NCBI GenBank assembly: GCA_031459385.1
Contig: JAVKIP010000002.1
Location: forward strand, 64,355 to 128,354
DNA from: Candidatus Fervidifonticultor secundus
GTDB taxonomy: Bacteria; Sysuimicrobiota; Sysuimicrobiia; Sysuimicrobiales; Humicultoraceae
Length of the DNA: 64,000 bases
Direction of reading: 5' to 3'
Below are positions 52,639-56,627 of the stretch, in pieces. The notes below the pieces were generated by a model. That model had not been told where the DNA came from, searched no databases, and saw nothing but the letters and a program-made list of their open reading frames with translations. Each line of letters begins with the position of its first letter. Position 1 is the stretch's first letter. Position numbers and translations under genes: made by a program.

Positions 52639-53994
52639 ATGACCGACCCGCCATCCCGTGCACCCGCGTCGTTCCACTACGCATGGATCGTGCTGGGCGC
52701 AGTCATGCTCGTCCTGTTGACCGCCTCAGGCGTGCGGTCGTCGTTCGGCATCTTCATCAGGCCCATAGAGGCCGACTTCCAGACCGGCCGCGCGGCGCTC
52801 TCGCTGGTGGCCTCGCTGTCCCTGTTCCTCTATGGCGCCGCCGGGCCGGTGGTCGGGTACCTGGCGGACCGGTGGGGCCCGCGCTGGGTACTCGCCGGGG
52901 CCGTAGCGCTCCTCGGGGCAGGGGCCGTCGCGTCGTCGTTCGTCACGAGCCTGTGGCAGGTCTACGTGACCGCCGGCGTGCTGACGGCGCTGGGCGCGGG
53001 TGGCGCGGCAATGTCCGTGGCGGCCTCCCTGGCGGCCCGCTGGTTCGATACCCGGCGAGGACTGGTGCTGGGCCTGGCCGGGGCGGGCATGGCAGGCGGC
53101 CAGCTGCTCATCGTGCCCCTGGTCATGGCCGTGACGCTGACGTGGGGCTGGCGCATGGGTTACCTGGGGCTGGGGATCGGGTTCCTCGCGGTCATCCTGC
53201 CCGTGGTGCTCCTGCTGGTGCGCAACGATCCCCAGGACGTCGGGCTCCGGCCGTTTGGTGCCGCCGCCGACGCGCGGCCGGTCACCGCCGCGTCGCGCGC
53301 CGCCGCGCGGACTGGAGTGCGCGACGCGGCCCGTACGGTGCCCTTCTGGCTGCTGGCCGGATCGTTCTGGGTGTGCGGCTACACCACGTCGGGGCTCGTC
53401 CTTACCCACCTGGTGCCCCACGCGACGGAGCATGGCTTCCACGCGGGTCAGGCGGCCCAGGCGCTGGGCCTCATGGGCGCGCTGAACATCCTGGGCACCG
53501 TGGGGTCAGGCTGGATCTGCGACCGATACGGCGCGCGCGCGCCGCTGGCAGCTTACTACCTGCTGCGGGGCCTGTCGCTGGTCTTCCTGCCCTTCGTGGG
53601 TACCGCGCCAGGGTTGTTTGCGTTTGCCGCCGTCTACGGGTTGAACTACATTTCCACGGTTCCGCCTACCACGGCTCTCACGGCCCAGGTCTACGGACGC
53701 TACTCGGTCGGTGAGCTCTCGGGCTGGATCTTCTTCTCCCATCAGATCGGGGCGGCTGTCGGCGCGCTGGTGGGCGGGGTCTTCTACGATCGGTTCGGGA
53801 ACTACGTGCTGGCGTTCCATTCCGCCGCGGCACTGGCGCTGGTCGCCGTGGTGATGGTCCTGGCGATCCGCCCCGAGCCGCTCGGAGGATCGGCCCGCCC
53901 GCCGCGCCCGCAGGCCGTGCCGGCGCCCGCGGGCGGTCGCCCGCACGGGGTGGTCGTGACCGACCGCCCGGTCGTGGTCCGCGCGAGGCGCTGA
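52639..53994 (+). CDS. MFS transporter (MCT/OFA-like)
   Basis: About 12 TM segments; G.LADRWGPR, WF..RRGL..G, GWICDRYG. Confidence 0.9.
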   Translation: MTDPPSRAPASFHYAWIVLGAVMLVLLTASGVRSSFGIFIRPIEADFQTGRAALSLVASLSLFLYGAAGPVVGYLADRWGPRWVLAGAVALLGAGAVASSFVTSLWQVYVTAGVLTALGAGGAAMSVAASLAARWFDTRRGLVLGLAGAGMAGGQLLIVPLVMAVTLTWGWRMGYLGLGIGFLAVILPVVLLLVRNDPQDVGLRPFGAAADARPVTAASRAAARTGVRDAARTVPFWLLAGSFWVCGYTTSGLVLTHLVPHATEHGFHAGQAAQALGLMGALNILGTVGSGWICDRYGARAPLAAYYLLRGLSLVFLPFVGTAPGLFAFAAVYGLNYISTVPPTTALTAQVYGRYSVGELSGWIFFSHQIGAAVGALVGGVFYDRFGNYVLAFHSAAALALVAVVMVLAIRPEPLGGSARPPRPQAVPAPAGGRPHGVVVTDRPVVVRARR

Positions 53995-54974
53995 TGGACG
54001 CGGCGTTCCTCTGGCCCTCGGCGCTGTGGCTGCTCTGGCTCGTGCCCGGGGTGGCGCTAGCCTACCGCCGGGCGCGTCGGCGGGCGCCCGCCGGCCAGGT
54101 CATGTTTCCGCACGTGGGCTTGCTGGCCGAGGCCGCGGGCCATGCGCGGCCCGTGCGCCAGCACCTGGCGACGGCGTTATTCCTGGCCGCGCTGGCGTTC
54201 GTCGTAACCGGGCTGGCCCGCCCCCAGGTACCCTTGCCGGTGCCGGCCGACCGTTCGGCGATCGTCCTGGCCATCGACATCAGCGGTAGCATGCGGTCCA
54301 CGGACGTGCTGCCCAACCGGCTGGCGGCGGCGCAGGAGGCGGCGCGCGCATTCCTCCGCACGGTGCCGGCCAGTGTCCGCGTGGGCCTGGTGAGCTTTGG
54401 CGGGTACGCGTCATTGCTCGTGCCGCCCACCACCGAGCGCCAGCCGCTGTTCGACGCGATCGACGGGCTGCGCTTCATCCGCCGGACCGCGATCGGCGAG
54501 GGGTTGCTGGAGGCGGTCGCCGCGCTTCCGGGGCGCGTGCGCGCCCATCCCGATGGTACGCTGGCGGCGCGGCCGCCCGGCCCGCTGCCTCCCGGCGTGG
54601 TGATCCTGCTCTCCGATGGCCGCAGCAACACCGGTATCGACGCGGTGCAGGCGGCGGCCATCGCCCGCCAGCAGGAGGTCGTCGTCTACACCGTCGGCGT
54701 GGGGCAGCCGCAGACTCCCGACAACGCCTGGACCATCGGTGGCCCGCTGGACGAGGCGGAGTTGCAGGCGGTGGCGCGGGAGGCCGGCGGCAAGTACTTC
54801 CGCGCCACCTCCGCAGCAGGTCTGCGGGAGACCTATGAGCGCCTCGCCCGCGCCGTCGGGTGGGAGCGTCGGCCGCAGGAAGTCACCGGAGTGGTGGGGC
54901 TGCTGGGGGGGCTCGCCCTCGCCGCGGCGGTGGCCGTCTCCGGCGTGCTCACGCACCGGCTGGGCGTTCCGTAG
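53994..54974 (+). CDS. Membrane-anchored VWA-domain protein (BatA-like)
   Basis: N-terminal F.WP..L / LARP domain; MIDAS DISGS, TAIG, LLSDG; C-terminal TM segment. Confidence 0.85.
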   Translation: MDAAFLWPSALWLLWLVPGVALAYRRARRRAPAGQVMFPHVGLLAEAAGHARPVRQHLATALFLAALAFVVTGLARPQVPLPVPADRSAIVLAIDISGSMRSTDVLPNRLAAAQEAARAFLRTVPASVRVGLVSFGGYASLLVPPTTERQPLFDAIDGLRFIRRTAIGEGLLEAVAALPGRVRAHPDGTLAARPPGPLPPGVVILLSDGRSNTGIDAVQAAAIARQQEVVVYTVGVGQPQTPDNAWTIGGPLDEAELQAVAREAGGKYFRATSAAGLRETYERLARAVGWERRPQEVTGVVGLLGGLALAAAVAVSGVLTHRLGVP

Positions 54975-55123: not shown

Positions 55124-55269
55124 CGCAGCCTTCCGGGGCAGGGTGAGACGCTGGATGACGGCGTCAATTCCCGATCGGCGGTAACAGCCCGTGAGACCGG
55201 CGCGGAGCCGGTCGTGGCCCGGTGGAACTCCGGGGCCGACGGTAGAGTCCGTATGAGGTGAAGGCTGCG
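55124..55269 (+). ncRNA. FMN (RFN element) riboswitch, variant
   Basis: P1 CGCAGCCTTC/GAAGGCTGCG (10 bp). RFN blocks in order: GGGGCAGGGTGA, AATTCCCGA, GGCGGT, AGCCCG, CCGGTG..ACTCCGG, GCCGACGGTAGAGTCCG, ATG. Confidence 0.88.
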
Positions 55270-55298
55270 AGGTCCTGGCGCGTTCGCACCGCCCCGGG

Positions 55299-55328
55299 GG
55301 ACGCCCGAGTTCGGGCGTCTTTTGCTTT
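55299..55328 (+). terminator. Riboswitch expression-platform intrinsic terminator
   Basis: GACGCCCG-AGTT-CGGGCGTC followed by TTTTGCTTT, between the aptamer and the RBS. Confidence 0.8.
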
Positions 55329-55347
55329 GCGCCAGAAGGAGCCGACG

Positions 55348-56487
55348 ATGGTGGCTGGTACGCGTCGCACGACCGCCCTCCTGCTGGCGGGCCTCGGCCT
55401 GCTGTTGGCCCTCCCCCGGCCGGCGCCCGGCCAGGCGCTGGAAGATCGGCTGGTCGTGATGACCCCCATCCCGCGCGAGGTCGCCGATACCGTGGCCGAC
55501 CGCTTCGCCGAGCACGCGCGGCAGCGGTACGGCGCGCCCCTGCGGCCGACGCTGGTGTTCCTGGGCGGTCCCACGATGTATGCCCGCGTCCTGGAGTGGC
55601 GCGGCCGCCCTGATGCCGATCTGCTGTGGGCCAGCGAGGCTGAGGTGCTGGACGACCTCGTCAACCGTCGGCTCCTCGTCCTCCACGAGCTGCCCGAGGC
55701 GCTGGTTCGGGACGTCCCGCAGGCGATCGGCGGGCCCCGGGCGATCCCGTTGCGCGACGGTCGCGGCTACTGGATCGGGACCGCCCTGACGCCCGCTGGC
55801 ATCGTGTACCACCCACGGCTGCTGCGGCGCCTGGGCCTCGATCCGCCGCACGACTGGGACGACCTGCTCGACTGCCGCCTGCGAGGCCAGGTCGTGCAGA
55901 CCACGCCCGACCGCTCCGCGACGAACCACAGCTCGCTCGAGGTGATCCTGCAGCTCCGCGGCTGGCAGCGCGGGTGGGAGTGGGCCCAGCGGCTGGCCGC
56001 GACGACCGGCATCTACGTCACTCGTAGCCGCGACGTGCCGACGTTCGTGGCGCGCGGCGAGTTCGCCGTGGGCTTCGCCGTGCTCAGCTACATGGCGTTC
56101 CAGGAGGTGCTCGGCGGCCACGATATCCGCTTCGTGAGCCCGCCCTACGCCTGGATCTCGCCGGCGCCGTCTGCCGTGCTGGCCGGTGCCCGGTCGCCGC
56201 GTGCCGCCCGCGCGTTCCTGCAGTTCCTCCTCAGTGACGAAGGGCAGCGGCTCATGATGGCTCACGGGCTGTTTCCGATCGTGCCGCGCTTCAAGATGGA
56301 GGGCCCACCCGGGTCCGTCGCCGCGCAGGCCGCGACGTTCGCCGGCATGCGGTCGTTCTTCGACCGGCCCGTCCGGACGATCTACGACGACGACCTGGCG
56401 CAGAAGCGCTACCAGGAGGTGAATGAGCTCTACCGCAAGCTCGTCTTCGAGCGACACGACCAGCTGAAGCGGCTGCACTGTCCCTGA
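55348..56487 (+). CDS. Orphan FbpA/AfuA-family ABC substrate-binding protein under riboswitch control; paralog of 17810-18946
   Basis: AAGGAG RBS; signal peptide. Long stretches match the first SBP (DWDDLLDCRL.GQV, GWEWAQRL, RSRDVPT, GEFAVGFAV, SFFDRPVR, LKRL.CP). Confidence 0.85.
   Translation: MVAGTRRTTALLLAGLGLLLALPRPAPGQALEDRLVVMTPIPREVADTVADRFAEHARQRYGAPLRPTLVFLGGPTMYARVLEWRGRPDADLLWASEAEVLDDLVNRRLLVLHELPEALVRDVPQAIGGPRAIPLRDGRGYWIGTALTPAGIVYHPRLLRRLGLDPPHDWDDLLDCRLRGQVVQTTPDRSATNHSSLEVILQLRGWQRGWEWAQRLAATTGIYVTRSRDVPTFVARGEFAVGFAVLSYMAFQEVLGGHDIRFVSPPYAWISPAPSAVLAGARSPRAARAFLQFLLSDEGQRLMMAHGLFPIVPRFKMEGPPGSVAAQAATFAGMRSFFDRPVRTIYDDDLAQKRYQEVNELYRKLVFERHDQLKRLHCP

Positions 56488-56551: not shown

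Positions 56552-56627
<76 letters not shown>

Follow-up and report, generated by a model that had tools for sequence, protein, structure and literature searches.

The 64,000-nucleotide (nt) stretch of the Candidatus Fervidifonticultor secundus genome analysed here (contig JAVKIP010000002.1, positions 64,355 to 128,354; hereafter the window) carries on its forward strand, at 55125-55268, a match to the flavin mononucleotide (FMN) aptamer family RF00050, which covers the model end to end (positions 1-138) with 70.0 bits and an E-value of 8.4e-14 and thus lies above the gathering score of 66.2 bits. Behind the aptamer follow a terminator-like hairpin, a ribosome-binding site and the gene of a secreted solute-binding protein (Table 1). 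The original prediction took this aptamer for a variant with possibly altered ligand specificity on account of six deviations from the consensus, namely a hairpin inserted in the P2 loop, GAUCGG for GACCGG, CCCGUGA for CCCGCGA, a G in the junction J4/5, CCGUAUG for CCGGATG and one extra base on each junction next to P1; all six are confirmed by the sequence and the RF00050 alignment. As described below, the aptamer belongs to a class which keeps the FMN-type fold under selection, has fixed changes in its binding pocket and is linked exclusively to vitamin B6 genes, and we hold it to be probable that the element is a terminator-type OFF switch responding to a vitamin B6 compound, as an offshoot of the FMN riboswitch.

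Class-specific changes in the aptamer core

Position numbers in the aptamer follow the Fusobacterium numbering, which was set by register only, from the Rfam alignment, the helix ranges in PMC10809319 and the FMN contacts named in PMC6298564, bioRxiv 10.1101/389148 and PMC12219259. In this numbering the substitutions of the window are C30U, C46U, A63G and G98U.

To separate what is particular to the variant from what is common in its lineage, the genome itself provides the nearest comparison, for it has three RF00050 matches, the other two of which (87.2 and 86.3 bits) each stand upstream of ribD. These two canonical aptamers likewise have P2-loop inserts, of 27 and 21 nt, and the GAUCGG motif, but they show CCCGCGA, GAUCCGG and CCGGAUGGGAGAAGG where the variant has its changes. 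The P2 insert and GAUCGG are also found in many relatives, and C30U in some unrelated FMN aptamers. Since the P2 hairpin and C30U occur in both canonical copies of the same genome, they are habits of the lineage and take no part in the character of the variant. The second canonical aptamer (G000:C46:3630-3776, L002) is located on a 6-kb contig and has a core identical to that of an aptamer from another genus (G031, L030); this contig may be foreign, the estimated contamination of the assembly being 5.5%.

For a wider comparison, 100 unrelated genomes, obtained through chance pattern matches, were searched, and 28 of them hold RF00050 matches, 35 in all, with scores of 80-125 bits. Of these matches 28 were parsed for positions 63, 82 and 98 and for J6/1 and seven were not; the canonical aptamers of the lineage form the other reference, with at least one odd 'canonical' row among those parsed. 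A63 is present in 28/28 diverse and 33/35 lineage canonical aptamers but only in 3/61 variants, 58 of which have G63 instead. C82 is present in 28/28 and 34/35, respectively, and in seven of the 61 variants including that of the window, the remaining 54 having U82; G98 is present again in 28/28 and 34/35, and in none of the variants, a set which is itself defined by U98. As for the junctions, the J6/1 tail after G101 measures 3 nt in all diverse (28/28) and lineage canonical (35/35) aptamers and 4 nt in 59/61 variants. With a second parser, which left 4 of the 63 variant rows unparsed, the J1/2 spacer was found to be 1 nt in 24/25 diverse and 42/44 lineage canonical aptamers, and 2-3 nt in 57/63 variant rows. 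The pair 33/46 is G-C in 19, A-U in three and G-U in one of the 25 diverse aptamers and G-C in 39/39 parsed canonical aptamers of the lineage, against G-U in 60/63 variant rows and in 57/57 of the aligned variants.

The class is accordingly defined by G98U, A63G, the G33-U46 wobble, one extra base each in J1/2 and J6/1, and in most members also C82U. The window, with a J1/2 spacer of 2 nt, a J6/1 tail of 4 nt, U98 and G63, lacks the canonical combination of G98-A85, A63 and short spacer and tail. The six deviations had all been regarded as unusual, and this holds for G63, U98 and the extra junction bases, none of which is found in the diverse ordinary aptamers; it does not hold for the P2 hairpin and U30, being lineage traits, nor for U46, which by itself is also seen in ordinary FMN aptamers among the 25 diverse ones.

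The changes cluster on the side of the pocket that faces the ring and next to the phosphate site. In the FMN complex a G98-A85 pair is described beneath the flavin (bioRxiv 10.1101/389148), G98 lies within 4 A of FMN (PMC3201879), and the N7 of G33 holds a phosphate-bridging Mg2+ (PMC12219259); a role of A63 is not named in the FMN-aptamer literature searched. The earlier reading that the U at 55252 would allow a Watson-Crick pair with the A of GCCGAC is borne out by the alignment of 57 variants (see below), in which A85-U98 is A-U in 57/57; moreover, positions 63 and 82 are able to pair in all 57 (G-U in 45, G-C in nine, A-U in three). The J1/2 GGGGC, which in FMN aptamers provides phosphate- and ribityl-side contacts (PMC6298564; PMC12219259), and A48, which stacks on the ligand (PMC6298564), are invariant, and G62 and A99 are unchanged in 61/61 variants.

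Table 1. Features of the variant leader and its gene in the window, with examples of the AIRS/AIRS_C protein from other loci
Feature	Position	Strand	Remark
Aptamer with FMN-riboswitch architecture P1-P6, variant class	55125..55268	+	RF00050 match; P1-P6 given by RNAalifold on 57 variants
P1 5' strand GCAGCCUUC	55125..55133	+	9 complementary pairs with 55260-55268
Extra J1/2 nucleotide C, spacer typical of the class, separating P1 from the GGGG run	55134	+	
J1/2 GGGGC (G9-G12, C13)	55135..55139	+	invariant in 57/57 variants
P2 extension hairpin GACGCUG-GAUGA-CGGCGUC in the P2 loop, 19 nt	55147..55165	+	lineage trait
U30 (GAUCGG), lineage trait	55175	+	also in the genome's two canonical aptamers
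P3, 7-nt loop, closed by the G33-U46 wobble (G55178, U55192; CCCGUGA)	55178..55192	+	
G47 A48	55193..55194	+	invariant in 57/57 variants
P4 hairpin	55195..55213	+	4/4 outer pairs changed on both sides
J4/5 U61 G62 G63 (G55217 giving UGGCCCGG), G63 in place of A63	55215..55217	+	
P5 stem-loop	55218..55234	+	100% of cells paired in 57 variants
J5/6 G81 C82 C83 G84 A85	55235..55239	+	C82 in the window, U82 in most variants
P6 stem-loop	55240..55251	+	pairs invariant in 57/57 variants
J6/1 U98 A99 U100 G101 A G G U (CCGUAUG), G98U and one extra nucleotide	55252..55259	+	8 nt, not 7
P1 3' strand GAAGGCUGC	55260..55268	+	pairs with 55125-55133
CUGGCGC, complementary to GCGCCAG	55275..55281	+	would enclose the terminator, close to the ribosome-binding site
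GCCCC element immediately 5' of the terminator	55291..55295	+	complementary to J1/2 GGGGC
Intrinsic-terminator-like hairpin GACGCCCG-AGUU-CGGGCGUC (55300-55319), then UUUUGCUUU	55300..55328	+	minimum-energy fold
GCGCCAG, 3' partner of 55275-55281	55329..55335	+	
Ribosome-binding site AAGGAG	55336..55341	+	6 nt before the ATG at 55348
Secreted solute-binding protein, 379 aa, PF13531, regulated gene	55348..56487	+	PF13531 63.7 bits
AIRS/AIRS_C protein, examples	L053:1262-2248, L090:1024-2025, L041:1062-2249	+	

Recurrence, selection and origin of the variant

The low-scoring RF00050 matches in related genomes have the same core changes as the window. In fact, the phylum, which is uncultivated and rich in thermophiles, is represented by 94 genomes, and a 19-base signature of the variant was found in 35 of them, all within one order: in the family here called f1 it occurs in 18/33 genomes plus that of the window, and in f2 in 16/22, and in the same scan it occurs in 0/23 genomes of f4, 0/12 of f5 and 0/1 each of f3, f6 and f7. 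The reversed pattern, used as a control on the same 94 genomes, gave no match. The public records among the matches carry the labels Candidatus Fervidifonticultor, Candidatus Calidihabitans (Candidatus Sysuimicrobiota) and 'Armatimonadota bacterium'. A scan of metagenome contigs with a longer pattern added 52 more stretches, and altogether 62 unique variant cores were collected from the two families and the metagenome contigs. An earlier scan with a 15-base pattern had given at least 119 stretches, 13 of which among the matches listed had an FMN-like context, the others being chance matches, and it is uninformative on absence outside the phylum. Unpublished genomes contribute single rows, G019 giving L049 and one or two signature matches and G010 giving the canonical L021, and no claim is made on them alone.

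The alignment of the variants comprises 57 of the 62 cores, the five left out being insertion-bearing forms of 230-281 nt. In this alignment 95.4% of the cells expected to pair are standard-paired and 21 pairs are changed on both sides, a result that was approached neither by any of 500 shuffles (0/500) nor by any slid register. RNAalifold found P1 to P6 independently with 20 compensated pairs. The compensatory changes reach all nine pairs of P1 (9/9), and in the P2 extension hairpin 6/6 outer pairs are changed on both sides with 98.8% of cells paired. The extra base in J1/2, for its part, has no possible pairing with the extra base in J6/1 in 54/57 variants. The five long forms (L203, L242, L243, L210 and L247, all on metagenome contigs) have insertions of short repeats, for example GGCAGT and CGACC, in the P2 and/or P4 loops and an unaltered core, and it is only in these two loops that large insertions are tolerated.

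The kept fold, the compensatory changes and the recurrence together indicate a selected class and not a private or decaying copy. The opposite view, that an FMN riboswitch is here decaying or has lost its function, may draw on the score of the window, 70 bits against 85-125 for ordinary members, and on the relative G005, where a 5'-truncated remnant stands before the same gene; it has to face the 62 unique sequences, in which the core is invariant and the fold is preserved with compensatory changes, as well as an expression platform which is conserved too, and we regard it as scarcely credible. The private, decaying element that the original prediction had named as a refuting outcome is contradicted on the same grounds, and the recurrence in related genomes that it had left as a question is established by the 35 genomes and 62 cores. 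What is left of the variant in G005 (L282; G005:C4:82315-83416, minus strand) is its 3' half, beginning at J4/5, with a change in P6 and with the terminator preserved; it is located directly after an ABC permease gene and upstream of the same binding-protein gene as in the window, and is a decayed copy of the variant.

In a maximum-likelihood tree of 124 aptamers, 58 variants make up one side of a single branch with support 100/99 and a stem length of 1.04, with the caveat that the tree is built from few columns and that the variant label is itself defined by one column. A single origin of the class is thus likely on these sequences.

Genes and expression platform behind the variant

For each unique core, the first downstream gene was identified by tblastn with representative proteins. 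An S-component of an energy-coupling factor (ECF) transporter of family PF07155 (PdxU/PdxU2-type) follows 28 of the 62 cores, an orthologue of the window's binding protein 16, and pdxS 14; three cores have under 400 nt of downstream DNA, which leaves 59 assessable, and in the remaining one a frame with the PdxS N-terminus is closed by a stop after 24 codons and followed by an amino-acid permease. All 59 assessable variants therefore precede vitamin B6-related genes, and riboflavin genes were found behind none of them (0/59), ribD included. As for the aptamers of the G98 type, 41 precede ribD and none precedes the B6 genes of the variant, a comparison from which one coding-region artefact of the regular expression (L198) was set aside and outside which 25 cores with other downstream genes stand.

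The assignments of these genes agree with curated models and with the literature. The representative PdxS scores 508.6 bits with NF003215 (cut-off 395), and pdxT of the SNO family follows pdxS in 13/13 loci with enough DNA. The S-component has a single match among solved structures, chain S of 4HZU (E 5.4e-15), which is the Lactobacillus 'HmpT', now PdxU2, with pyridoxamine shown as a substrate (PMC4860826). According to a 2023 survey (PMC9997740), PdxU, PdxU2/HmpT (PF07155) and P5PA (PF13531) are the sole characterised prokaryotic B6 transporters. From the curated matches and this survey it follows that each of the three gene sets behind the variant belongs to vitamin B6 and none to the flavins.

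With these results the question of whether the variant still senses a flavin can be considered. If so, the substitutions would be neutral or would tune the affinity, and the B6 genes would be under flavin control. In favour of this, the window passes the RF00050 gathering score, the nucleotides that contact FMN or stack on it (G10, G11, G12, G32, G62, G84, A48, A85 and A99; PMC6298564), that is, all but G98, are invariant in 57/57 aligned variants, the A85-U98 pair could still give a stacking floor, and FMN riboswitches are known that have been tuned by second-shell changes with their ligand class unaltered, for example by A61 in Streptomyces davawensis (PMC3458559). However, none of the assessable variants precedes a riboflavin gene and the canonical aptamers of the same genomes precede ribD; a single conserved clade on a long branch with five coordinated core changes is unlike neutral drift; and, of 20 variants of relatives scanned with RF00050, only 10 reach the gathering score, the other 10 lying at 57.9-65.8 bits. 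Moreover, no flavin requirement is known in the chemistry of PdxS and PdxT. Flavin sensing is therefore unlikely in our judgement. The original prediction had proposed flavin adenine dinucleotide (FAD), riboflavin, a flavin breakdown product or another ligand; the first three find no variant before a flavin gene, and only the last fits the gene contexts, so that the altered specificity which it proposed is probably right, given the comparative evidence of 62 unique sequences, compensatory changes and gene contexts.

Besides the S-component, the ECF operon has some further members of interest. A protein of about 330 aa with the domains AIRS and AIRS_C comes after the PF07155 S-component in 24/28 loci, and in 23/23 of those with at least 900 nt downstream. 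Its scores lie under the curated cut-offs of thiL, hypE and selD, and the protein may be a kinase, so far unrecognised, which acts on imported B6 vitamers. Immediately behind the ECF operon under control of the variant, a thiamine pyrophosphate (TPP) riboswitch (RF00059; L090:2028-2140, plus strand, 67.0 bits; L081:766-878, minus strand, 57.6 bits) precedes a ThiT-type thiamine S-component, so that two vitamin switches stand in tandem. That the ECF operon might serve thiamine was considered and rejected, since ThiT has a TPP riboswitch of its own and neither pdxS nor the P5PA-like protein fits it.

In the window itself the regulated gene encodes the binding protein, whose best match by sequence in the Protein Data Bank is 6WCE, the pyridoxal 5'-phosphate (PLP) binding protein P5PA (E 2.8e-15). 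By fold 6WCE is again the best match (E 5.3e-14), the model being of moderate quality with a mean pLDDT (predicted local distance difference test) of 70, and the identity to P5PA in the structural alignment is 16-18%. In P5PA the phosphate is bound by T37, S147, G148, T149 and S183 and the ring by Y103 and H203 (PMC8427247); in a low-identity and possibly shifted HMMER alignment, S-A-T of the window's protein stands opposite S147-G148-T149 and S opposite S183. P5PA was reported by its authors only in Pasteurellaceae (PMC8427247), and the window's protein, judged by these matches, would be a distant, independent case of a P5PA-like binder.

The distribution of B6 synthesis genes is in keeping with such a role. 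The genome of the window (97.6% complete) has no match to PdxS (PF01680) or PdxJ (PF03740), and its two congeners, one of them assembled in 4 contigs, have no match to PdxS (PF01680). With neither pdxS nor pdxJ matched, the organism is predicted to be dependent on B6 from outside, which it is likely to acquire by means of the regulated binding protein. In f1 and f2 together there are eight genomes with pdxS, and in seven of them the variant is located immediately upstream; the exception is G014 (L281, G014:C134, minus strand), where three repeats CAGUACUACUG / CAGTACTACTG and no variant are found upstream of pdxS, and these look like a protein operator in place of the riboswitch. In the families f4 and f5, pdxS is present and the variant absent.

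In the window, the gene of the binding protein is on its own and is followed by a transfer RNA (tRNA) gene at 56552-56624. The same tRNA directly after this gene is also found in many relatives (loci L034-L051), making a single-gene unit which is syntenic across genera. Its neighbours, a major facilitator superfamily (MFS) transporter (PF07690) and a BatA/VWA protein upstream (52639-54974) and a Memo-like protein downstream of the tRNA, have no evident link to the switch.

Between aptamer and gene, the terminator-like hairpin is conserved in the class: by eye, nearly the same stem and U run are found 3' of the aptamer in all three gene classes. The terminator stem does not overlap the 3' strand of P1, so that the terminator can form while the aptamer is closed. 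This is an OFF-switch geometry, and it suits genes of synthesis and uptake. Two antiterminator candidates were found, one being J1/2 GGGGC with the GCCCC element and the other CCGGGGUC of P5/J5-6 with GAC(G)CCCG. The GCCCC element is present in nearly all leaders listed (by eye) and pairs with GGGGC in several constrained folds; the C82 of the window shows no co-variation with the terminator arm. Further downstream, segment pairs of the CUGGCGC/GCGCCAG type are seen again at further loci where the binding protein is the downstream gene (by eye), and this pairing next to the ribosome-binding site may add translational control. A promoter scan of the window gave no sigma-70-like site. In one metatranscriptome run, which covers small parts of the stretch, a single 200-nt contig is identical to 55944-56143 within the gene, and none was found across the leader.

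The ligand, its rivals and known systems

How the switch would work can be outlined from these features. The nascent leader is predicted to fold at 55125-55268 into the six-helix FMN-type aptamer, in which the guanines that hold the FMN phosphate are all retained and the floor under the aromatic ring would be remodelled by the A85-U98 pair, G63, G33-U46 and the added base in both J1/2 and J6/1. With the ligand bound and P1 closed, the hairpin at 55300-55319 with its U run would stop transcription before the gene; at low ligand the terminator would be prevented. In this way plentiful B6 would shut off B6 uptake by the P5PA-like periplasmic binding protein, and in relatives the same aptamer and terminator would control pdxS-pdxT or the PdxU-type ECF component likewise. 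Among B6 vitamers PLP is the most likely ligand: the variant retains the guanines that bind the phosphate, PdxST makes PLP directly, and the binding protein has its nearest relative in a protein that binds PLP; we give PLP itself about an even chance. We conjecture that a ligand with one ring leaves space which is taken up by the narrower A-U floor and the two bases added in the junctions.

Several observations weigh against this interpretation. First of all, apart from G98 the direct contacts of FMN are all unchanged, so FMN could still be bound, and PLP is much shorter than FMN from ring to phosphate, which makes it unclear how the same contacts would fit. The gene assignments have their ambiguities as well: PF07155 also includes transporters of the hydroxymethylpyrimidine (HMP, thiamine precursor) type and bears the Pfam label 'riboflavin', the ECF operon adjoins a ThiT gene, though ThiT is under its own TPP riboswitch, binders of sugar phosphates of the AfuA type score by fold almost equal to P5PA (E 2.1e-13, next after 6WCE), and the ring-binding residues Y103, H203 and Q267 of P5PA align with A, S and P in the HMMER alignment mentioned above. 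In the leader, a simple consensus terminator scan of the window returned 0 sites and thus passed over the hairpin at 55300-55319, and no consistent antiterminator emerged from constrained folds or from a duplex search against the 5' arm of the terminator in 23 leaders. Finally, no example lies outside two related families and a set of metagenome contigs whose relatedness is unknown, which means that the counts are not independent events, and the gene recruitments number at most about three.

Some of these points would also accord with a switch that senses another small phosphorylated metabolite outside vitamin B6, such as a pathway intermediate or a shared compound, to which the B6 genes would be linked indirectly. 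The phosphate-binding guanines are kept, the family of the binding protein also binds hexose phosphates, PF07155 includes the HMP-type transporters, and the uncharacterised AIR-synthase-like (aminoimidazole ribonucleotide) enzyme is co-transcribed with the S-component in 24/28 loci. Nevertheless, pdxS-pdxT make PLP directly with no other known product, the remnant case is also pdxS, and three unrelated protein families all mapping to B6 are hard to explain by such a compound, for which reason we consider it quite improbable.

Returning to vitamin B6 as the signal, the most complete account would be as follows. The variant would be the first natural class of PLP riboswitch, with one origin in the ancestor of the two families, where the flavin side was remodelled and the phosphate pocket kept; it would control pdxST and two types of B6 uptake, namely a P5PA-like binder in auxotrophs and a PdxU-type transporter whose gene is co-transcribed with that of a candidate new B6 kinase of the AIR-synthase fold. 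Taken as a whole, we see this account as evenly balanced between holding and failing.

The interest of such a class lies in a gap that has been pointed out before. Few near-universal coenzymes lack a validated riboswitch, PLP being one of them, and a 2022 review from the Breaker laboratory named this gap and asked whether there is an evolutionary reason for it (PMC10043782). At about 145 nt and with a terminator as its simple read-out, the variant is a concrete candidate which can be tested cheaply. Should it bind PLP, a coenzyme aptamer would have been retargeted through its ring side with the phosphate side kept, and a B6 sensor for synthetic biology would be at hand; it would also aid the annotation of B6 transporters, only three of which are characterised (PMC9997740), and of a possible new B6 kinase. 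More generally, functionally different classes are present among the RF00050 matches near the gathering score.

In the literature covered, from which subscription journals and very recent work lay apart, no vitamin B6 or PLP riboswitch and no FMN-type aptamer with pdx genes was found among the matches listed, and the terms CCGUAUGAGG, pdxS and pyridoxal are absent from the three searchable supplementary files of the study of FMN variants by Atilho, Perkins and Breaker (2019; PMC6298564). The comparison is therefore with the following systems. On the side of the proteins, P5PA (6WCE) and PdxU2/HmpT (4HZU) are the nearest solved relatives of the transporter families controlled by the variant, though P5PA differs from the window's protein by the low identity and the ring-binding residues described above. 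With the FMN riboswitch (RF00050; Fusobacterium nucleatum 3F2Q) the variant shares the six-helix architecture, the guanines of the phosphate and ribityl side, A48, A85, A99 and a putative expression platform based on a terminator; it differs by having A85-U98 for G98-A85, G63, mostly U82, G33-U46, an L3 one base longer and longer J1/2 and J6/1, and by its regulon, which consists of B6 genes and never of riboflavin genes.

Two of the systems compared are FMN aptamers with altered ligand discrimination. In the ribB FMN riboswitch of Streptomyces davawensis (Pedrolli et al. 2012; PMC3458559), the discrimination is altered by a nucleotide without direct contact to the ligand, A61 at the foot of P4, so that there, as proposed for the variant, a change outside the direct contacts matters; yet it is a single nucleotide in a switch which still senses FMN before riboflavin genes, whereas the variant has several coordinated changes and another regulon. 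The other case is that of the subtypes 1 and 2 of Atilho et al. (2019; PMC6298564), where guanines contacting the phosphate and ribityl moieties are changed to adenines and the flavin contacts are kept. These subtypes reject FMN, one of them binding riboflavin, lumiflavin and lumichrome, and they control COG3601 or multidrug efflux genes of the EmrB/NorM type, with subtype 2 acting as an ON switch. None of the features that define them is found in our variant, which is their mirror image in that it retains the guanines and has its changes in the floor on the flavin side; it stands before genes for the synthesis and uptake of B6 and has an OFF-switch geometry. Even so, both are rare offshoots of RF00050 with changed gene associations and with changed or suspected changed ligands, and both have been approached by the same reasoning from core substitutions together with gene context.

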